Virus record (IMG/VR): IMGVR_UViG_2882447294_000001
Span: 587-64,586 of that record
Source: a virus
Taxonomy: Duplodnaviria > Caudoviricetes
Reading direction: 5' to 3' (one strand)
DNA length: 64,000 nt
In this document: positions 2,277-25,733 of the stretch, one piece after another
Numbering within the stretch: the stretch's first letter is position 1
Layout of the letters: every line of letters begins with the position of its first letter
Notes under the pieces: model-generated
The model's database searches: none
The model's input: only the letters and a program-made list of their open reading frames with translations
What the model was told of the DNA's origin: nothing
Translations under genes and position numbers: made by a program

Positions 2277-2798
2277 ATGGAAGTGCGCGCCAGCAACGAG
2301 ATGAAGCCCCAGGGGCGCAAGCTGACCGGCTATGTGTCCCGCTTCAACGAGCCTGCCGATCTGGGCGAGTTCGTCGAGGTCGTTCGGCCTGGCGCGTTCA
2401 CTCGCACGCTGGGCGACCCGAGAGCCCGCAACATCCGCGCCATCTACGAGCATGACGGCCGCGCCCTGCTGGGGAGAGTAGGTGCCGGCAGTCTGAGGCT
2501 GGCGGAAGATGCCGCTGGGCTCGCCTTCGAGATCGACCTACCCGATACCACGCTGGGCCGGGACCTAGCGGCACTGGTCACGCGCGGCGACGTGGCCGGC
2601 TGTTCGTTCGGCTTCCTGCCGGTGCGGGATCGCTGGATCGAGGAGAACGGGCGCCCGGTGCGTGAGCTGCTGGACGTTGACCTGTTCGAGGTGACGGTAA
2701 CGGCGGCACCCGCCTATGACGCCTCGAGCGTTCAGGTTCGCCATACCCAACACCGTGCCATTCGCTTGGCCCGGCTCTACCTGGAGGCCTGCCAGTGA
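2277..2798 (+). CDS. HK97-family prohead protease
   Basis: 'GYVSRFN', 'YEHD..LLGR', 'GCSFGF', 'LFEVTVTAAPAY'. Confidence 0.93.
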   Translation: MEVRASNEMKPQGRKLTGYVSRFNEPADLGEFVEVVRPGAFTRTLGDPRARNIRAIYEHDGRALLGRVGAGSLRLAEDAAGLAFEIDLPDTTLGRDLAALVTRGDVAGCSFGFLPVRDRWIEENGRPVRELLDVDLFEVTVTAAPAYDASSVQVRHTQHRAIRLARLYLEACQ

Positions 2799-3964
2799 AG
2801 CTTTTCCGACGCCGCACCGAGAAGCGGGCCGACGCCTACGACCGTTACTGGGACAAGGTGGCGGCCGTTCAGGACGTAGCCGGCGTGAACGTGACGCCAT
2901 CCAGCGCCGAGGGTATTTCCGCCGTCTATGCCGCCGTGGCAGCCATTTCCGAGAGCGTGGCGAGCCTGCCTCTCGACATCTACCGGCGCACGGAGGATGG
3001 CCGGGAGAAAGCCCGCTCCCATCCGCTGTACAAGGTGCTGCACACCGAGCCCAACTCGAAGCAAACCGCGCTCGAGTTCCGCGAGATGATGCAGCGCCAC
3101 GTGCTGCTGAGGGGCAATGCCTATGCCGAGATCCAGTGGAATCGTGCCGGGCGCGTCGAGGCGCTGCTACCGCTGCACCCTGATCGCGTGAGCGTGCTGC
3201 TGACCGACGATGATTCACTGATCTACGAGGTGAGCGATCGACGCGGCAACATCCGCCGGCTGCTGGCCGAGGAGGTGCTGCACCTTCGCTACCACACCGA
3301 TGACGGGATCATGGGAAGAAGCCCCATTCAGGTCGCGCGCGACACCGTGGGGCTAGCACTGGCCGAGCGCACGCACGGGGAACGGATGTTCGCCCAGGGC
3401 ACCAAGCTATCCGGAGTGATCCAGACGCAAGCTGGCACCACCAAGCAGCAGGCCGGCGACATTCGGGAGAGCTGGGCGGCTGGCTATGGCGGCGTGGGTA
3501 GCCATGGCAAGACCGCCGTCCTTCCTGCTGGCGCCGAGTTCAAGACCGTCAGCATGACGCTGGAGGATGCCGAGTGGATCGAGGCCCGCCGGATGAGTGT
3601 CGAGGAGGTGGCGCGCCTGTTCCGCGTGCCGCCTGTCCTGATCGGGGATCTGCGAGAGGCCAACTACTCCAACGCCGTGGAGCTGGGCCGGTACTTCGTG
3701 ACGCACACGCTGCGCCGGCACCTGGTGATGTGGGAGCAGGCGGCGGGCCGATCGTTGATCAACGACCCGGCCACCTTCTACGCCGAGCACAACGTGGAAG
3801 GGCTGCTGCGCGGCGATAGCCTCAAGCGCGCCCAGTTCTACCAGCGCTCGATCGAGGACGGCTGGATGATGCGTTCAGAGGTTCGTCGCCTGGAGAACCT
3901 GCCTACCGTGGAGGGTATCGACGATGCGCCCCGTCAAGAAGCAGCGCCGCGTACCGCTGAGTAG
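2795..3964 (+). CDS. HK97-family portal protein
   Basis: 'ISESVASLPL', 'LLRGNAY', 'GRSPI', 'VARLFRVPP', 'EVRRLENLP'. Confidence 0.95.
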   Translation: MKLFRRRTEKRADAYDRYWDKVAAVQDVAGVNVTPSSAEGISAVYAAVAAISESVASLPLDIYRRTEDGREKARSHPLYKVLHTEPNSKQTALEFREMMQRHVLLRGNAYAEIQWNRAGRVEALLPLHPDRVSVLLTDDDSLIYEVSDRRGNIRRLLAEEVLHLRYHTDDGIMGRSPIQVARDTVGLALAERTHGERMFAQGTKLSGVIQTQAGTTKQQAGDIRESWAAGYGGVGSHGKTAVLPAGAEFKTVSMTLEDAEWIEARRMSVEEVARLFRVPPVLIGDLREANYSNAVELGRYFVTHTLRRHLVMWEQAAGRSLINDPATFYAEHNVEGLLRGDSLKRAQFYQRSIEDGWMMRSEVRRLENLPTVEGIDDAPRQEAAPRTAE

Positions 3965-4301: not shown

Positions 4302-4763
4302 ATGAAATCCACGCCACGCCGACACCGATCCGACAGCGCTAAGGCCGCTGTGACGGCTGCCCAGGCCGCCTCTATGGGGCCGCTCGAGCCGCCGGCATTC
4401 GTGCGCGTGCGAGACCGTGACCGCCCGGCGTGGGACGCCATCGTGACCGCTCGAGCGCGTGACACGTGGACAGAAGCCGACCTGATGCTGGCGGCGCAAC
4501 TGGCCCGCGCCTATGGCGACATCGCGGAGCTGGAGGCCTACATCGACGAGAACGGCATGATTCTAGGCGATCAAATCAACCCGGCCTGCACGCTGCTGGA
4601 CAAGGTGAGCCGGCGAGCATTGGCGATGGCCCGCCAACTCAAGGTCGACACGATCAGCGTGGTGGGCAAGTCGCAGGATATCCACAAGGGTGCGGCACTC
4701 GAGCGTGGCGCCCGCCAGGGTATCGACGATGACGACGACCTGATTCCGAGGGCGCTGCAATGA
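4302..4763 (+). CDS. terS: Terminase small subunit
   Basis: Position, size, 'NPACTLL' motif, ATGA overlap with terL. Confidence 0.8.
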   Translation: MKSTPRRHRSDSAKAAVTAAQAASMGPLEPPAFVRVRDRDRPAWDAIVTARARDTWTEADLMLAAQLARAYGDIAELEAYIDENGMILGDQINPACTLLDKVSRRALAMARQLKVDTISVVGKSQDIHKGAALERGARQGIDDDDDLIPRALQ

Positions 4764-6256
4764 CCCGCGCCGATCGCGTGATTCGCTTCATCGAGCGCTA
4801 CTGCGTCACGCCTGAAGGTGCAGGCGTGGGCAAGCCGATGGTGCTGGCGGACTTCCAACAGCAGTTCATCCGCGACATCTACGACAACCCGGCCGGCACA
4901 CGGCGCGCGATCCTGTCGGTGGGCCGCAAGAACGGCAAGACCGGGCTGATCGCCGCCCTGCTACTGGCCCACCTGGTGGGCCCCGAGGCGAAGCAGAATA
5001 GCCAGCTCGTCTCCGGCGCCCTGAGCCGCGATCAGGCGGCGCTGGTATTCAACCTAGCGTCCAAGATGGTGCAGCAGTCGGCGGAGCTTTCGCGCATCGT
5101 GAGGATTGTGCCCAGTGGCAAGCGCCTCATAGGGCTGACGATGAATACGGAGTTCAAGGCGCTGGCGGCCGATGGCAAGACGGCGCACGGCCTGTCGCCG
5201 GTGCTGGCCATCCTCGACGAGGTGGGCCAGGTGCGCGGGCCACAGTCCGACTTCGTGGACGCGATCACTACCAGCCAGGGCGCCCACGAAAGCCCGTTAT
5301 TGATCACGATCAGCACGCAGGCGGCGAACGATGCCGACCTGCTGAGCCAGTGGATCGACGACGCGTTGCGCTCGAAAGACCCGCGCACCGTCTGCCGACT
5401 CTACGCCGCGCCCGAAGGCTGCGACCTGATGGACGAGGAGGCGTGGAAGGCTGCCAATCCAGCGCTTGGCATCTTCCGCAGTCAGGACGATATGCGCGAG
5501 CAGATGGCGCAGGCCGAACGGATGCCGAGCATGTCGAACACCGCGCGCAACCTGCTGCTGAATCAGCGCGTGAGCCTGGATAGCCCGTTCATCAGCCCGG
5601 ACGTGTGGGCCGGCTGCGCCGAGACGCCCGAGCCATTCGATGGCCCGGTCTATGGCGGGCTAGACCTGTCGGCTCGAACCGACCTCACCGCGCTGGTGCT
5701 GGTGGGCAAGGTCGGCGGCGTGTGGCAAGTGCGGCCTTACTTCTGGACGCCAGAGCAGGGGTTATTCGACCGCTCCAAGGCTGACCGCGCCCCCTATGAC
5801 GTGTGGGCGCGCTCCGGACTGCTTCGCACCACGCCCGGCGCCACCGTGGACTATGAGGCAGTGGCCGCCGAGCTGGCGGACATCCTGCAGGACGTGGATC
5901 TGCACGCGCTGGCCTTCGACCGCTGGCGCATCGACATCTTCCGTAAGGAGCTGGACCGGCTGGGCATCGAGCTACCACTGGTCCCTCACGGCCAAGGCTT
6001 CCGAGACATGGCGCCGGCACTCGATGCCCTGGAGGCGGAGCTACTGAACGGCCGCATCGCCCACGGCAATCACCCGGTGCTGACGATGTGCGCGGCCAAC
6101 GCCGTCGCCGTCACCGATCCGGCCGGCGCCCGTAAGCTGGACAAGTCGCGGCGAACCGGCCGCATCGACGGCATTCAGGCGCTGGCGATGGCAATGGGCG
6201 CCGCCCAGGGGGCCGAGGAGCCCGCCGATATCGAAACCGAGGTGTATTTCATATGA
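4760..6256 (+). CDS. terL: Terminase large subunit (cos type)
   Basis: Walker A 'GRKNGKT', Walker B 'ILDE', nuclease 'GLDLS..DLTA', 'RIDG..A'. Confidence 0.96.
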   Translation: MTRADRVIRFIERYCVTPEGAGVGKPMVLADFQQQFIRDIYDNPAGTRRAILSVGRKNGKTGLIAALLLAHLVGPEAKQNSQLVSGALSRDQAALVFNLASKMVQQSAELSRIVRIVPSGKRLIGLTMNTEFKALAADGKTAHGLSPVLAILDEVGQVRGPQSDFVDAITTSQGAHESPLLITISTQAANDADLLSQWIDDALRSKDPRTVCRLYAAPEGCDLMDEEAWKAANPALGIFRSQDDMREQMAQAERMPSMSNTARNLLLNQRVSLDSPFISPDVWAGCAETPEPFDGPVYGGLDLSARTDLTALVLVGKVGGVWQVRPYFWTPEQGLFDRSKADRAPYDVWARSGLLRTTPGATVDYEAVAAELADILQDVDLHALAFDRWRIDIFRKELDRLGIELPLVPHGQGFRDMAPALDALEAELLNGRIAHGNHPVLTMCAANAVAVTDPAGARKLDKSRRTGRIDGIQALAMAMGAAQGAEEPADIETEVYFI

Positions 6257-6534
6257 CGACCGTCACGCTGCAGGAAGCAAAGGACCATTTACGAATCCTC
6301 GAGGATGACGAGGACGCTTACATTACCGGGCTGCTGGCAGCCGCTGAGGGCCACGTAGCCGGCTACCTTGGCGATGACCTGCCCGAGCCGATGCCGGCGC
6401 CTGTGCGCGCCGCCGTCCTTCTGCTGGTCGGCGACCTGTACGAGCATCGCGAGCGGCAGAACGATCGGGCGCTGTACGAGAACGCCACGTTTCATCTGCT
6501 GCTGAACCCCTACCGATCGCACGAGGTGCTGTGA
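6253..6534 (+). CDS. Head-tail connector (HK97 gp6-like)
   Basis: 'TLQEAKDHLRI..DED', 'AVLLLVGDLYEHRE', 'LLNPYR'. Confidence 0.92.
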   Translation: MTTVTLQEAKDHLRILEDDEDAYITGLLAAAEGHVAGYLGDDLPEPMPAPVRAAVLLLVGDLYEHRERQNDRALYENATFHLLLNPYRSHEVL

Positions 6535-6860
6535 TGCGAGCGGGCAAGCTGCGACACCTGGTGACGATCCAGAACTTCAGCCAGACCCAGAACCAATATG
6601 GCGAGGTGATAACCGAGTGGATCGACGGCCCACGTATCCGCGCCAGTGTCGAGCCGCTGCGTGGGCGTGAATACTTCGCCGCAGCGCAGGTGAACGCGGA
6701 GACGACCTATCGCGTCCGATGCCGCTATCACCCGGAGCTGGCGACCGGTAACGCTACAAGCAAGCGCCTCACAGTACAGGGCATGATGTTCGAGATCGAG
6801 GCTGTGCTGGACGTGGAGCTGAAACACGAGTGGATGGAGATCATCTGCCATACGAGGTAG
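6531..6860 (+). CDS. Head closure / head-tail adaptor (SPP1 gp16-like)
   Basis: 'MRAGKLRHLVTIQ', 'ASVEPLRGRE', 'RCRY', 'FEIEAV'. Confidence 0.92.
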   Translation: MMRAGKLRHLVTIQNFSQTQNQYGEVITEWIDGPRIRASVEPLRGREYFAAAQVNAETTYRVRCRYHPELATGNATSKRLTVQGMMFEIEAVLDVELKHEWMEIICHTR

Positions 6861-6980
6861 GAACCCGCAGCCAGTGCGGTCCCAAGAGGGAATAGACTGG
6901 CCGGGGATCAGTCGGACAGTGCCCCGATCGAGCAAAACCCCGACAGCCGGCAGGCGCAGTTCCTCGCGCCGTGGCCGGCA
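6861..6980 (+). ncRNA. Candidate structured RNA with three hairpins, each loop having a complementary partner
   Basis: Pairings read by eye (see findings); no family recognised. Confidence 0.45.
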
Positions 6981-7030
6981 TCTCTTATTTTCTGCAAACC
7001 ATTGAAAAGCAATAATTCCTGCACAGGTCG

Positions 7031-7057
7031 GGGTTTTACGAAGGTCTCGTAAAACCC
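7031..7057. repeat. Perfect 11-bp inverted repeat
   Basis: GGGTTTTACGA-aggtc-TCGTAAAACCC. Confidence 0.7.
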
Positions 7058-7103
7058 ATCAAACGGTGGGATTTTCGGCACTACCCTCGAAAGCGCCTTT
7101 CGT

Positions 7104-7142
7104 TGCTACCTGTTGCCCGCCACTGCTACCTATTTGCTACCT
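7104..7142 (+). repeat. Three TGCTACCT direct repeats, probable integrase arm-type sites of the satellite
   Basis: Copies at 7104-7111, 7124-7131 and 7135-7142, about 70-100 bp from the att core. Confidence 0.6.
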
Positions 7143-7157
7143 AGTCGCTAAGCAACG

Positions 7158-7197
7158 AAAAACCGCCACCCGGCATGATCCGTAAGTGGCGGTTTTT
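7158..7197. terminator. Bidirectional intrinsic terminator downstream of the tRNA 3' end
   Basis: AAAAACCGCCAC...GTGGCGGTTTTT. Confidence 0.75.
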
Positions 7198-7208
7198 ACT
7201 AGCCATTC

Positions 7209-7253
7209 TGGTCGGAGCGACAGGATTCGAACCTGCGACCTCTGCAACCCCAT
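7209..7253 (-). tRNA. 3' half of tRNA-Pro(GGG): att-site duplication, not an intact gene
   Basis: Minus strand reads ATGGGGT-TGCAG-AGGTC-GCAGG-TTCGAAT-CCTGT-CGCTCCG-A-CCA; no D arm or 5' acceptor strand upstream. Confidence 0.9.
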
Positions 7254-7272
7254 TTTGGCGCCGATAGGTAGA

Positions 7273-7355
7273 TATGCCGTTGATAATAAAAGAGAAACGC
7301 GAGAATGGGATAGGGGCTAAAACGCTCGATTCGCTCCATATGAATCAATGGGTTC
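7273..7355. promoter_or_regulatory. Two IHF-like sites in the prophage att arm
   Basis: TATCAACGGCATA (minus, 7273-7285) and AATCAATGGGTTC (7343-7355) resemble WATCAANNNNTTR. Confidence 0.4.
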
Positions 7356-8497
7356 TATGAGGGTTTTGGAAGGGATAGCAAGGCGTTCATGTCGTACACA
7401 TTGCCTTTGGCAGCCTGCCAGCGTATGCCATGCCCGTCGAGGTAATGCTGGGTCATTTCTTCGTCGGCGTGCCCCATTAAAATTTGAATGTCGCCAATGG
7501 GCACGCCTTTGAGCTCGAGTAGCCGAGATCCTAGCGAGCGGATCTCATGGAAGGTCGGCTGTTCTTTTTCCGGCAGGCGCGCGATGCTTTGAACTTTCAC
7601 CCGCAACTCTGCGAACTGCCGAGAAATCTTGTCTGGCGTGACACTACTCCAATGCTCGCGTCTCTTCGCTGCTTTCGTTATCCGCCTCGGCGTTCTGTGG
7701 ACGATGAAAGGGGAGACTGGCGGTAATTGCCGACTTCGCTGAATGAGGCTTTCTATTGCTGGAGTCATCCCGATCGCGACGTAGGCGGTCTTTGAGCGCT
7801 CCCGCGTTTTCTGCCGGACGTAGTGTAGGGCGTTGTCGTAGATATGGTCGTACCGGGCTGCCGCGGCTTCGGCCCGGCCAAACAGGCAGACAAGAGCCAT
7901 CTCCATGGCGATCTGAAACCACTCGGGCGCCATGGCGTAAATCGCCTTGTATTGCTCGATGGTGAGCCGCCTGCGCTGCTTCTCGTAGGATTCATCGCTC
8001 TTCCGTGTCGGAGCTATCGGGTTTCCATTCATCCAGCCCTTCGTCTGCGCGTAGTCGAAGATCTGCGACAGCACCGACCGGTACTGGATGTACGGGTCGC
8101 CTTTGAAGTTTTCGTCTAGGTACTCGGCGCACCAACGAGTGTCTATCTGGTCCAGGCGCGCGTCACCACGATCTTTGATGATGCGACCCGTCCGGTAATG
8201 CTTGTTCTGCTTTGTGCTGTCACTGAGTTTTCGGTGATCGTCTACACGTTCTTTCAAGAAGAGCTTTGCCGCATGTTTGAGCGTGACCCCCTCCAAACCC
8301 ATCACGCGGGCGACCAGGTCAGAGCTCTTCATCAGGCGGGCATTGAGCACGCGAGCCGCCGCTTGTGCCTTGGCCTTATCGGAGCCCATACCGTGCCATT
8401 TTTGGGTAACCGGATTCTTGTACGAGTAATACCCGCGACTTTCATATAGATTGGGTTCCAGCCCTCGCTTGCTGCGAGAGCGCGGTCTTGCTGCCAC
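7355..8497 (-). CDS. int: Lambda-type tyrosine integrase
   Basis: Arm-binding N-terminus 'PNLY..GYYSYKNP', 'TFHEIRSL', 'LMGH..MT.HY'. Confidence 0.95.
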   Translation of the reverse strand: MAARPRSRSKRGLEPNLYESRGYYSYKNPVTQKWHGMGSDKAKAQAAARVLNARLMKSSDLVARVMGLEGVTLKHAAKLFLKERVDDHRKLSDSTKQNKHYRTGRIIKDRGDARLDQIDTRWCAEYLDENFKGDPYIQYRSVLSQIFDYAQTKGWMNGNPIAPTRKSDESYEKQRRRLTIEQYKAIYAMAPEWFQIAMEMALVCLFGRAEAAAARYDHIYDNALHYVRQKTRERSKTAYVAIGMTPAIESLIQRSRQLPPVSPFIVHRTPRRITKAAKRREHWSSVTPDKISRQFAELRVKVQSIARLPEKEQPTFHEIRSLGSRLLELKGVPIGDIQILMGHADEEMTQHYLDGHGIRWQAAKGNVYDMNALLSLPKPS

Positions 8498-12599: not shown

Positions 12600-15134
12600 T
12601 CAGGCGGCCTCGTCGTCTTCAAGCACATCGAATAGCGATGGCATCGACATCTCTCGTTCAGCGGCCGCGCAGTAGGCGGCGCCATCCAGGTAATAGGCGG
12701 GATTGAGCTCGACGCCGCGGCCGCGACGCTTGAGCTTCACCGCACAGTACGGCACGGTCATTAGCCCGCCGAACGGGTCGAAGATCTCTTCGCCGGGCAT
12801 GCTGTACTGCTCGATGCAGCGCTCGACGATGTCGATCGGCAGTGGGCACAGATGCTGATCCTTGCCCTTCGAGGCCTGGCTGGTGTTGAGCGTCCGCATC
12901 CTGACCACGTCTGCCCATACGTCCGGGTGCCAGCTCTGCGGCTGTAGCAGCATGAATGTCGTTGGCAGCCATCCCGATTCGTCGACGGCTTCGGCAATCT
13001 TCACGTTGTGCCGGTAGTCGTAGACGGTCTCCAGGCTGTAGCGCTTGTACAGTTGGAAGATGGCGGCCTGATCCAGTGATTCGAGCTCTTTCGGATCGAG
13101 CAGGCGGTCGCCGCTGGACCGCATGAATCCATGGGCGTCCATCTGCCAGCGCGCGCGAGAATATTCGGCCTTGTTCTTCACGACCGGCGTGTCGGCATAG
13201 CCGTTGCTGGGATCGCTCGTCGGCTTTCGGAACACCAGCAGGTACTCCGGCATGCCGTTGCCCATGCGCGAGCCGTCCTTGCACTGCTCGGACCATCCCA
13301 GCCGGTAGGTCTGATTGTTCTCGCGTACGACATCGGTGACGATCGTCTTCCTGGCCAGGAACGCGAAGCCGTGCTTCGTGAAGTTGGCAACGGTCTCGTC
13401 GCTGAACGGGTGGACGGTCTGGAAGCCGAACCCGTTGATGCCGCCCGGCGTGATTCGGTCCTTCACGTGGATCGCCGCGACGCGCCCCGGTTTCAGCACG
13501 CGCAGCAACTCCGGTACCAGGTAGTCCATCTGCTGCCAGAAATGCGCGTTATCGTCGGTGTGGCCGAAGTCGTTATAGCTCGGGCTGTACTCGTACTGCG
13601 TCGCGAACGGAATGCTGGTCACGATCAGGTCGACGCTGTTCTCGTCCATGCTGCGCGTCTCTTCCACGCAGTCGTTGTTGACCACCGTGTAGTCTTGGCC
13701 ACTCGCCTCGACGCGCTTCACGCCCAGCGAGCGAGCTAGCGTTGCCGCCATGGCGGCATGGGTGAGGCCGTACTCTCGTATGAACTCGGTCATCTTCTTC
13801 ACCATCGTGTCGTGCTGGCGCCATTTCCGCTCGAGCTGACGCTTCACCTCGACTTCGGCTTCGGTGTAGATCAAATCGATCCGGACCGGCCTGGTTTGGA
13901 GGAAGCGCTGGATGCGGTGAATGGCTTGAATGAAGTCGTTGAACTTGAACCCGATGCCGAGGAATACGGCCCAGGCGCAATGCCGCTGGAAGTTGCAGCC
14001 GCTGCCGGCGATGGAGGGCTTGGCGGCGAGTTCCTGGAAGCGACCGTCACTGAAATCGACGATGGCCTGTTCGCGCTTGTCCAGGTCCTGGCTGCCGTAG
14101 ACGCTCACGATATCGGGAATCGCTGACTCGATGGCGTGACGCTCGGCCTCGAGGTCGTGCCAGATCAGACGGTGCGCCGCCGGATCCTCGGCGCGGATGG
14201 CCATGAGCTTGTCGATACGCGCCGGCAGGCTGTCGCGTTTCTCGCGCGCCGCGTCCTGGATGCCGATCGCGGCATTGGCGAACAACCGGCCCTGGCCATC
14301 TTTCTCGGCGCCGGCCTTGGTGTGGTCGCTGGGAATCTCGTGCCAGCGCACATCCATTGAGGGGAGTTCGTAGCCCTCGTCGCTGAATCCGAGATCGGAG
14401 GGGCGCTGGACGAACAGCCCCCAGCTCGCTACCCACAGCCAGAACTCCTTCTCCTTGTGCGGGTGCAGTGTGAGCTTGTCGGCCTTCTCGGCGTTGCGCT
14501 TGAAGAAGCGCGTCTTGGCCTGGCCGACGTCCATGATGCCCAGGAAAGCCGCATAGGCGAGCAGCTCGATGTACTCGTTCGGGCTCGGCGTTGCCGTGGC
14601 CACGAACCGGTACCGGATCCCTTCGGTGCGGATCCCGTTCTTCCGGTCATCGCCGGCGAACAGCGCCATGAACTCGCGGAAAGTCTTGCTGCCGCCGAAG
14701 CCGCGCAGGCAGGATGCCTCGTCGAGCGATGTCACGCTGAACAGCCTGGGATCGAGCTTACCGTCGCGCACCGACTCGTAGTTTGTGAGGTAGATCGCCT
14801 CCGGGTCGGTAGCCTCCTCGATCCGGCGGATGAACTTCACCTTGATGCCGAGCATCTCGGCGTCACGCCGGAACTCTTGGCGAACGCCCAGCGGGATGAC
14901 GATCAGCGCCATGCCGCCGGCACGCTCACGACAGATCCGCACCGCCTCGAGCTGAATAACAGACTTGCCCAGGCCAAAGGCGGCGAAACAAGCCCGACGG
15001 CCGCCGTCGACCATCCACTGCACCATGGCGCGCTGGTGATCCTTCAGGATTGGGTTGATGTCGGCGGGGGCGATCGGTACGCCATAGACAGGCGCGACCG
15101 CGACCTTCGCCTTGAGGAAGTCGTGGTATTCCAT
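12600..15134 (-). CDS. SNF2-like helicase fused to an amino (N4/N6) DNA methyltransferase
   Basis: 'FGLGKS', 'LDEAS', 'ATATP', 'RIQRF'; then 'VDLIVTSIPF', 'HLCPL', 'DPFGG'. Confidence 0.9.
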   Translation of the reverse strand: MEYHDFLKAKVAVAPVYGVPIAPADINPILKDHQRAMVQWMVDGGRRACFAAFGLGKSVIQLEAVRICRERAGGMALIVIPLGVRQEFRRDAEMLGIKVKFIRRIEEATDPEAIYLTNYESVRDGKLDPRLFSVTSLDEASCLRGFGGSKTFREFMALFAGDDRKNGIRTEGIRYRFVATATPSPNEYIELLAYAAFLGIMDVGQAKTRFFKRNAEKADKLTLHPHKEKEFWLWVASWGLFVQRPSDLGFSDEGYELPSMDVRWHEIPSDHTKAGAEKDGQGRLFANAAIGIQDAAREKRDSLPARIDKLMAIRAEDPAAHRLIWHDLEAERHAIESAIPDIVSVYGSQDLDKREQAIVDFSDGRFQELAAKPSIAGSGCNFQRHCAWAVFLGIGFKFNDFIQAIHRIQRFLQTRPVRIDLIYTEAEVEVKRQLERKWRQHDTMVKKMTEFIREYGLTHAAMAATLARSLGVKRVEASGQDYTVVNNDCVEETRSMDENSVDLIVTSIPFATQYEYSPSYNDFGHTDDNAHFWQQMDYLVPELLRVLKPGRVAAIHVKDRITPGGINGFGFQTVHPFSDETVANFTKHGFAFLARKTIVTDVVRENNQTYRLGWSEQCKDGSRMGNGMPEYLLVFRKPTSDPSNGYADTPVVKNKAEYSRARWQMDAHGFMRSSGDRLLDPKELESLDQAAIFQLYKRYSLETVYDYRHNVKIAEAVDESGWLPTTFMLLQPQSWHPDVWADVVRMRTLNTSQASKGKDQHLCPLPIDIVERCIEQYSMPGEEIFDPFGGLMTVPYCAVKLKRRGRGVELNPAYYLDGAAYCAAAEREMSMPSLFDVLEDDEAA

Positions 15135-24966: not shown

Positions 24967-25733
24967 CCGAGACATCGATCATGGGCGTCCTGGAAACGCG
25001 AGCCGCGCATTGCGATCAGCACGGGGACTATGAGTCTTTGCTGCTGAACGTCGGCGGCAAGCGTTGGACAGGGTGCCCGCAATGCTCGCAGGCGGCGATC
25101 GACCGAGCCGAAGCTGAGCGCGAACAAAACCAGGTCGTCGATCTTCGCAGCCAGCGCGGTCAGGCCATGTTCGAACAGTCCGGCATTCCTGCGCGCCTGC
25201 GTGAGGCCACACTCAAAAACTACGTCAGCGCGGGCGACTCTCAGCAGCGCGCCCACAAGCAGGTATGCGAGTACGCTCGCCACCTACCCGAACGTCTTGG
25301 CGACGGCAATGGGTTGATCCTGATGGGCAATATGGGGACTGGCAAGACGCATCTCGCTGTCGGGCTGATCCGGCACTGTACTCGCAACCTCGCGGTCGCC
25401 GCCAAGTACACCACCGCGCCGGCGCTATTCTCCCGCATCCGAGCCTCATACAACTCTCACACCGAAACCGAGGCCAAGATTCTCGCCGAGCTGATCGCCG
25501 CCCCTTTGCTGGTGTTGGATGAGATCGGCGTCGGCAAAGGTTCCGACAACGAGTTGAACGTGACCTATAGCCTGCTTGGCCAGCGTTACGACGAACGCCG
25601 ACCGACCATCGTCATCACCAACCTGATGAGCGAGGAATTCAAGGCGTGGTTGGGCGAACGCGTCGTCGATCGCATGCGCGAGACGAACCCTGTCGTCCTG
25701 TTCGATTGGGAATCGCACAGGGGGCGCTCATGA
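24963..25733 (+). CDS. DnaC/IstB-like helicase loader
   Basis: 'GNMGTGKTHLA', 'LLVLDEIG', 'ITNL', 'RVVDRM'. Confidence 0.92.
   Translation: MTETSIMGVLETRAAHCDQHGDYESLLLNVGGKRWTGCPQCSQAAIDRAEAEREQNQVVDLRSQRGQAMFEQSGIPARLREATLKNYVSAGDSQQRAHKQVCEYARHLPERLGDGNGLILMGNMGTGKTHLAVGLIRHCTRNLAVAAKYTTAPALFSRIRASYNSHTETEAKILAELIAAPLLVLDEIGVGKGSDNELNVTYSLLGQRYDERRPTIVITNLMSEEFKAWLGERVVDRMRETNPVVLFDWESHRGRS

Follow-up and report, generated by a model that had tools for sequence, protein, structure and literature searches.

We analysed a window of 64,000 nucleotides of viral DNA (positions 587 to 64,586 of IMG/VR record IMGVR_UViG_2882447294_000001; unless a contig or locus is named, coordinates are those of this whole stretch), in which an operon of phage head and packaging genes is followed by a compact structured RNA. 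The genes lie on the + strand and were assigned by Pfam, TerS also by PHROG: capsid (1057–2274), prohead protease (2277–2798), portal (2795–3964), TerS (4302–4763), TerL (4760–6256), a gp6-like connector (6253–6534) and, as the last gene of the operon, a head completion or head closure protein of 109 aa (6531–6860; PF05521 Phage_HCP, E 3.6e-27). The stop codon of this last gene ends 4 nt before the RNA. A preliminary description of the window had proposed a compact structured RNA, with three hairpins and three pseudoknots, on the + strand at 6861–6980, directly after the last stop codon of a satellite head operon. That placement was borne out, and on re-reading the sequence all of the complementary strings that it listed were found where it had put them.

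The RNA belongs to a catalogued family, which the preliminary description had not recognized. The Rfam/Infernal scan that it called for gave a match to RF03044, Proteo-phage-1 RNA, at 6865–6948 (+), which spans model positions 1–82 of 82 and scores 80.4 bits where the gathering score is 42 (for the 64 kb as a whole, E = 4.9e-13); this was the sole family at or above cut-off in the window. In the covariance-model alignment, the consensus helices P1, P1a and P2 consist entirely of standard pairs in the window copy, which has the same helices and the same conserved blocks as the family and is an ordinary, strong member of it. Its surroundings, head and packaging genes together with attachment (att) repeats, provide the phage-related context in Proteobacteria to which the family name refers. 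When 6700–7400 was scanned permissively (E up to 10), the one further match was a tRNA fragment at 7220–7241, and there was no match to any Rfam family of self-cleaving ribozymes, packaging RNAs (pRNAs) or exonuclease-resistant RNAs (xrRNAs). The Proteo-phage-1 motif originates in the 2017 survey by Weinberg et al. (PMC5737381); the name is absent from the main text of that paper, as far as the parts available to us go, and the supplements, which may hold pseudoknots or gene associations, lie outside this statement. A full-text search of the literature for the name found no paper and thus no function for the RNA.

The genome of the window carries one copy of Proteo-phage-1, without a tandem array. 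When this genome and 60 relatives were scanned, RF03044 matches occurred in 2 of the 61: the genome of the window and G059, a member of the same order, whose two matches (42.1 and 36.7 bits) form a tandem pair ∼40 nt apart (L002/L003, G059:C12:285359–285566). Second copies were also seen in L032, where the copy is truncated (1902–1996), and in L049, where it is divergent (1218–1348).

In the window copy, the first hairpin (H1, 6865–6879, +) was described as CCGCA (6865–6869) opposite TGCGG (6875–6879); 6865–6868 pairs with 6876–6879, and the loop of H1 is the 5′ strand of P1. P1, the first of the three proposed pseudoknots, is formed by CCAGU (6871–6875) and ACUGG (6896–6900) in the register of the Rfam consensus, one step removed from the GCCAG (6870–6874) and CTGGC (6897–6901) originally paired. 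A small conserved hairpin, P1a (CCC 6881–6883 with GGG 6888–6890, +), lies inside P1. Since bases in the H1 loop find their partners downstream, the combination of H1 and P1 is an H-type pseudoknot. The second hairpin, P2 (6902–6926, +), pairs CGGGG (6902–6906) with CCCCG (6922–6926) around a 15-nt loop, AUCAGUCGGACAGUG, that contains the near-invariant blocks AUyAG and AGUG. Bases GUCGG (6911–6915) of this loop pair with CCGAC (6940–6944) to form PK2 (6911–6944, +), the second proposed pseudoknot, and an A-rich linker (6934–6937) stands 5′ of the downstream strand; P2 and PK2 thus constitute a second H-type pseudoknot. PK2 is adjoined, without overlap, by the third hairpin, P3 (6946–6979, +), which lies past the 3′ end of the Rfam model. 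Its base pairs GCCGGC (6946–6951) with GCCGGC (6974–6979) and its inner stem GGCGC (6953–6957) with GCGCC (6966–6970), the two being separated by a bulged A (6952) opposite GUG (6971–6973); the hairpin has an energy of −23.5 kcal/mol and is followed directly by a U-rich tail, AUCUCUUAUUUUCU (6980–6993, +). We have very little doubt that the stretch described here encodes a structured RNA of RF03044, organized as two side-by-side H-type pseudoknots together with P3. The printed Rfam model, by comparison, shows nested pairs only, where H1 and PK2 here give a double pseudoknot.

The + strand folds with −57.7 kcal/mol (z −3.9), and none of 200 shuffled sequences was equally stable. The minus strand is as stable (z −4.2), so that folding energy cannot pick the strand; evidence for structure and strand was taken from homologues. 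A first pattern, made from conserved unpaired positions, returned 37 IMG/VR stretches, 36 of them real and one (L020) a chance match. A second, stricter pattern returned 17 stretches in species-representative genomes, 12 from Pseudomonadota (alpha, beta and gamma) and 5 from Isosphaeraceae (Planctomycetota), and a third scan found 88 IMG/VR stretches, 80 of which were listed and 70 were unique; these third-scan loci are not independent, several being near-duplicates. The patterns fixed CGG/CCG in PK2 and several loop bases, leaving the neighbouring PK2 pair free on both sides, so that invariance at the fixed positions is partly made by the search. The covariance model built here, to which the matches were aligned, contains only nested P1, P1a, P2 and a P3 of the lambdoid type. 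Pairing counts for P1, P1a and P2 consequently lean towards the model, while the alignment is not fitted to H1 and PK2, which lie outside it.

Pairs are formed in 94.6% of 1113 cells when 35 Rfam-type sequences are aligned, as compared with 33–40% when the partners are slid by 1–3 columns, and column shuffles reached the observed pairing in 0 of 500 trials. Similar figures were obtained with 59 more diverse sequences (93.9% of 1158 cells, against 29–49% slid) and with an alignment of 18 sequences (96.5%, against 29–53%). Among the 59, all four pairs of H1 change on both sides (one, for example, is CG in 21, GC in 15, GU in 3 and UA in 3), with 76.5% of its cells paired; this rises to 95% in the closer set of 35. 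All five pairs of P1 and four of the five pairs of P2 also change on both sides, with 92.7% and 99.7% of cells paired, respectively. The free position of PK2 is UA in 25, AU in 20, CG in 13 and GC in 1 of the 59 sequences, and unpaired in none; in the set of 18 it is UA in 7, AU in 6 and GC in 5.

P3 was examined in a MAFFT alignment of 18 non-lambdoid sequences cut at the end of the helix. In its 6-bp base 99.1% of cells pair, and base pair 4 (CG 6, GC 6, AU 2, GU 2, UA 1, UG 1) and base pair 6 (CG 9, GC 5, UA 4) vary with pairing maintained. The 3′ ends of P3 were picked by complementarity, and shuffled windows give 6/6 complementarity in 895 of 3950 cases, so that any single P3 call is weak; support for the helix comes instead from its presence in 70 of 71 loci, from the flanking G-Y-G ahead of the 3′ strand (47/79) and the A after it (55/79), and from covariation. 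Thus H1, P1, P2, PK2 and P3 are conserved helices that are kept by compensatory change, as the three proposed hairpins and the first two proposed pseudoknots had implied. G-U cells outnumber A-C cells (42 to 11 in one alignment, 12 to 0 in the other), which points to the + strand, the sense strand of the operon. We conclude that this is a structure at the RNA level, on the sense strand.

The conserved unit exceeds the 82-nt Rfam model, with P3 occurring in all types examined, and the limits originally drawn, 6861–6980, fit this unit better than the model does: in a related satellite found in a public DNA run, similarity to the window runs through the RNA and ends at 6982. The third proposed pseudoknot, between TTCCTC of the P3 loop (6960–6965) and GAGGGA (6886–6891), did not survive the same comparison. 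Only 3–5 bp can form in 33 of 35 homologues, and over all 35 sequences shuffled loops match the observed length at a share of 0.27–1.0, which is chance level. The pairing is seen only in the window (6 bp) and in its nearest relative, L028 (5 bp), and it competes with the conserved P1a (6881–6883/6888–6890).

Among 66 third-scan IMG/VR loci, the nearest upstream open reading frame (ORF) on the same strand encodes TerL in 34. By Pfam, 27 of these TerL ORFs contain PF20441, most of them also PF03354; six contain Terminase_3 (PF04466), five of the six with Terminase_6N as well, and one is of the GpA type. They mostly end 40–62 nt before the GAT of the P2 loop, that is, 0 to ∼20 nt from the 5′ end of the RNA. 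The other upstream ORFs encode portal (2), capsid (2), Mu-F (1) or assorted proteins (8), or have no family (19). Many third-scan contigs measure 10–12 kb, with the RNA 0.4–2 kb from one end. In other satellites found in genomes, the RNA stands directly after the capsid gene, ∼20–25 nt ahead of an ORF of 72 aa. In satellites the RNA recurs at the 3′ side of terL, co-oriented with it and packed against the upstream stop codon, and this tight packing leaves no room for a promoter of its own. In the window, where the RNA begins 4 nt after the stop codon, a scan of 6300–7400 called no promoter-like or terminator-like site. L028, the closest relative, is a satellite-like contig of 11.1 kb; it begins inside a tmRNA gene (1–225), has the RNA after a head closure gene and also encodes a C4 antisense RNA (RF01695, 70.4 bits) at 2502–2590. 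When the RNA region of the window was compared by BLAST with isolated phages, the only match was 149 nt of its coding part in Halomonas phage QHHSV-1, and the terL-type RNA gave no match to isolated phages.

What follows P3 varies. A Shine–Dalgarno (SD) sequence and the start codon of an ORF of at least 50 aa lie within 60 nt of P3 in 20 of 71 loci by a strict pattern, and by eye ∼10 further loci of the 71 show ...GAAAGAnnCAAATG after P3. The proteins encoded there are often, we presume from their N-terminal motifs, gp6-like connectors. The tail of the window copy (...AAACCATTGAAAAGC...) resembles the connector leader of these relatives (...CCAACCATTTGAAAGA...), from which it would seem that, in the lineage of the window, the genes for connector and head-completion proteins moved from one side of the RNA to the other. 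In L091, L093 and L098, AUUUUU lies immediately 3′ of P3, and L028, L048, L054 and L129 have a separate canonical terminator 5–15 nt after it. Pairing of the conserved post-P3 tail (ACCUAUUC) with the linker between P1a and P1 was considered and rejected: by eye, only 4-nt matches in shifting registers were found.

A second setting is that of Pseudomonas lambdoid phages and prophages (phiAH14a and Solano among them), in which the order is NinB/NinG, a phrog_3373 or phrog_3412 protein, the RNA, then holin/spanin and terminase. The phrog_3373 and phrog_3412 proteins are weakly like antiterminator Q, and by eye a strong terminator precedes the RNA by 10–25 nt in ∼20 of 35 lambdoid loci. A promoter directly 5′ of these copies was also sought, and the −10-like words noticed by eye proved not to be conserved; a promoter and terminator scan of L011 called one distant terminator-like site only. 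The region past P3, at 5387–5500 in L011 and seen in ∼30 lambdoid loci, includes one hairpin with a GAAAGA loop; its end, GCACCTATTCAGG, is conserved, and in L010 and L013 it holds ∼120 inserted nucleotides. In the lambdoid loci L005 and L032, the RNA is bordered just upstream by a tRNA gene or a tRNA 3′ end (8 nt away in L032), and L005 has two tRNA matches ∼120–190 nt downstream of the RNA. In one viral contig, L131, the upstream ORF next to the RNA (13230–13457, −) contains an Acb2/Tad1 hairpin domain like that of anti-CBASS and anti-Thoeris sponges.

Our preferred reading, which we hold tentatively, is that the RNA is a cis-acting element that defines and protects the ends of late mRNAs. 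It would be transcribed as the last part of the capsid-to-head-completion operon of the satellite and would serve as punctuation of the late message in cis. In the window copy, P3 and the AUCUCUUAUUUU tail, with 8 T among its first 12 bases, are possibly an intrinsic terminator and would probably end the transcript there. The 3′ end might then be tucked against the pseudoknot stack, which as a cap would shield the message for TerL, connector and head-completion proteins from 3′-to-5′ exonucleases; alternatively, a conserved RNA-processing factor of the host may find a defined site in the fold. By either route the amount of packaging proteins would be set. In relatives in which the next gene begins 20–35 nt on, the fold would separate and insulate two cistrons. 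Polycistronic phage mRNAs contain structured elements, internally or at the end, that control mRNA ends and stability, among them the intercistronic RNase III sites in T7 and lambda's sib retroregulator; these serve as a working analogy, P3 being likewise an irregular hairpin with a conserved internal loop. They differ in being simple hairpins without pseudoknots, and to our knowledge they are not conserved across distant phages.

Several observations weigh against this reading. A strict terminator scan of 6300–7400 did not call P3 and its tail. Nor is the context uniform. In lambdoid loci a terminator sits just upstream of the RNA, and ∼110 nt past P3 is conserved there as well, with covarying hairpins. 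In phage PS-1 the RNA lies among early genes. The core of P2, PK2 and P3 also occurs in Planctomycetota chromosomes, in the Isosphaeraceae loci L042, L045, L047, L051 and L052, where the neighbours encode DUF1559, PepSY_TM, AhpC/TSA, superoxide dismutase (SOD) and cytochrome c′-like proteins and no phage genes were seen; L045 gave no Rfam match at E up to 0.1, and these copies may form a separate, cis-regulatory branch of the class. In addition, ∼25 unpaired nucleotides (AUyAG, AGUG, AAAAC, CAGCC and the G-Y-G bulge) are near-invariant across three classes of Pseudomonadota and in Planctomycetota. A plain stabilizer or terminator needs no such invariant nucleotides, which argues for a more specific job. 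Protection of mRNA ends leaves them unexplained, and for this reason the alternatives stay alive.

The first of these, that the double-pseudoknot core is a riboswitch-like sensor of a small molecule or protein with P3 as an output that gates read-through or translation, we consider unlikely, if worth keeping in view. Many invariant unpaired nucleotides, in combination with pseudoknots and an occurrence in two phyla, are what it would predict, and they agree with the traits (invariant unpaired nucleotides, pseudoknots, breadth) by which Weinberg et al. (2017; PMC5737381), in the portions consulted, mark an RNA as ‘biochemically sophisticated’. The alternation after P3 between a U-run or terminator and an SD sequence with ATG likewise recalls riboswitch expression platforms, and the Isosphaeraceae copies lie 49–173 nt upstream of genes for AhpC/TSA, cytochrome c′-like and other proteins. 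Against a sensor, the class of downstream gene is inconsistent; the window, L028 and several other loci have no downstream gene at all, and the constant neighbour, terL, stands upstream. Moreover, PK2 and P3 are adjacent, and no mutually exclusive pairing was seen between them.

More doubtful is a self-cleaving ribozyme, or a site for an endonuclease such as RNase P, that would cut the late mRNA between terL and the next gene and might leave the upstream message with a pseudoknot-capped 3′ end. Such a role would suit an RNA that is compact (∼115 nt), has pseudoknots and invariant nucleotides at its junctions, and lies between cistrons, in the same orientation, in operons of phages and satellites; the occasional second copies (G059, L032, L049) would suit it too. 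The base of P3, G...C followed by A (55/79) and at times by ACC (29/79), resembles a tRNA acceptor end, but ACC is present in only that minority and the window has AUC, and a tRNA-like acceptor end for RNase P is kept as no more than a lead. The lack of any match to an Rfam ribozyme family at E up to 10 also tells against cleavage, as does the terminator that follows at once in several copies; for other motifs, downstream terminators were deemed at odds with self-cleavage (PMC5737381, in the part seen).

Less probable again is a trans-acting RNA freed from the operon transcript, whether a regulatory small RNA, a decoy that captures a factor of the host or helper, a pRNA like that of phi29, or an antitoxin. 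The Rfam type of the family is ‘Gene; sRNA’, the RNA would be made with late and packaging genes and adjoins terL, and the lambdoid copies lie between the upstream terminator and the lysis genes, the place at which lambda-like phages make short late-leader RNAs. Against this, the space between the ORFs cannot accommodate a separate promoter, and association with three unrelated Pfam groups of TerL, as well as with non-packaging contexts, argues against a component of the packaging motor. The pRNA of phi29 offers a parallel, as loop pairings occur in it too and it is a phage RNA with a part in DNA packaging, much as the family described here adjoins terL; the pairings here are, by contrast, intramolecular, and no Rfam pRNA family was matched at E up to 10. 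An RNA antitoxin, one of the functions offered in the preliminary description, finds no footing in the window: there is a single copy without a tandem array and no credible downstream ORF before att, the interval from P3 to att holding only two overlapping frames of 39–44 aa that lack an SD sequence. A ToxI-like element of a type III toxin–antitoxin system was accordingly rejected, there being neither a repeat array nor a toxin gene and only one copy in the genome.

That the RNA mediates processive antitermination, with the nascent transcript binding RNA polymerase to allow read-through of terminators, seems to us quite improbable. The put sites of HK022 and the eps-associated RNA (EAR) of Bacillus are cis-acting folded RNAs in long operons, and the RNA described here is comparable, by description, as a cis-acting fold that could act on a universal host machine; a universal target, RNA polymerase for example, would account for the conservation between phyla. 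The lambdoid copies, which stand where the late region begins, and the terminators that follow the RNA in several satellites are also what this explanation would lead one to expect. Yet the window copy lies at the very end of its operon, a position unsuited to antitermination, with no useful sequence downstream before att either there or in L028; the nearest strong lambdoid terminator is upstream of the RNA, and the lambdoid phages also carry a Q-like protein. Finally, that there is no RNA function at all, and that chance GC-rich hairpins or a DNA-level site (an att arm, cos or a protein-binding site) account for the signal, has in its favour the equal stability of the minus strand and the position of the RNA 230 nt from att in the window, and is largely refuted by covariation that keeps pairing in all helices, by the excess of G-U over A-C (42:11 and 12:0), and by most relatives, which carry the element between genes and away from att.

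A broader interpretation, which we regard as speculative and improbable as it stands, is that Proteo-phage-1 is the visible core of a larger RNA class that extends over more than one phylum. Two pseudoknots, P3 and ∼25 invariant nucleotides, found directly after terL of three unrelated Pfam groups in capsid-forming satellites and phages and also in Isosphaeraceae chromosomes, would imply catalysis or specific binding. Such a class could be a self-cleaving or RNase P-directed module that gives the terL mRNA a pseudoknot-capped 3′ end, or else a sensor that ties expression of packaging genes to the state of the cell. Literature on ribozymes in connection with terminase and prophages, in the portion consulted, contained nothing relevant. 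As far as checked, with the supplements of PMC5737381 outside that scope, the conserved P3, the 110-nt lambdoid extension, the association with terL and with phage-inducible chromosomal islands of the capsid-forming kind (cf-PICIs) and the Planctomycetota copies are new. The family has been catalogued since 2017, and the question of its function is now testable, with the double pseudoknot and a third conserved helix as the true unit. Among the loci examined, where 34 of 66 upstream ORFs encode TerL, the RNA is regularly found 3′ of terL in capsid-forming satellites. If it controls the amount or the ends of packaging messages, it would be a regulatory part shared by the late operons of phages and satellites; if it cleaves or senses, it would represent a new class of RNA.

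The element that carries the window copy is integrated at tRNA-Pro. Three identical att cores of 46 nt occur on contig C67, at 14231–14276, at 24997 and at 82288–82333; the first lies 3.5 kb before the start of the window, the second is at 7209–7254 and the third is just past the window end, inside an intact tRNA-Pro(ggg). The three copies imply two elements in tandem at one tRNA-Pro. The core at 7209–7254 (−), which corresponds to the 3′ part of tRNA-Pro and gives a weak tRNA match, is both the right boundary of the satellite, which occupies 10.7 kb between att copies and ends at 7208, and the left boundary of a neighbouring prophage of ∼57 kb (7255–64499; integrase 7355–8497). The prophage has no copy of Proteo-phage-1 and could be the helper of the satellite.

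The left part of the satellite, all on the + strand, encodes an integrase of 460 aa, small ORFs without matches, a winged-HTH protein and a weak match to a replication initiator, and no tail genes were found among the satellite ORFs. This gene set agrees with that described for cf-PICIs (bioRxiv 10.1101/2022.09.08.507074, in the parts available), and those parts of the preprint make no mention of a non-coding RNA. Its size, with ∼10–15 kb expected for such islands, its integrase and head and packaging genes and the lack of tail genes fit a cf-PICI-like satellite. Neither alpA nor HNH was found in it, and the small ORFs after int and an ORF of 103 aa before terS have no Pfam or PHROG matches. 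The int-alpA RNA (RF02996), which is typical of PICIs, is absent from the satellite of the window (L041) and present in three of seven related satellite-sized loci scanned; L062, L078 and L115 are satellite-sized contigs with terL followed by the Proteo-phage-1 RNA that carry int-alpA RNA.

Between the RNA and att, a strong terminator-like hairpin with A-run and U-run flanks lies at 7158–7197 (+; −23.5 kcal/mol, z −3.9). Three direct repeats of TGCTACCT, read from the sequence at 7104–7111, 7124–7131 and 7135–7142 (+), are probably arm-type integrase sites of the satellite attachment region. In the related satellite from the public run, TGTCACCT repeats occur at the corresponding place.

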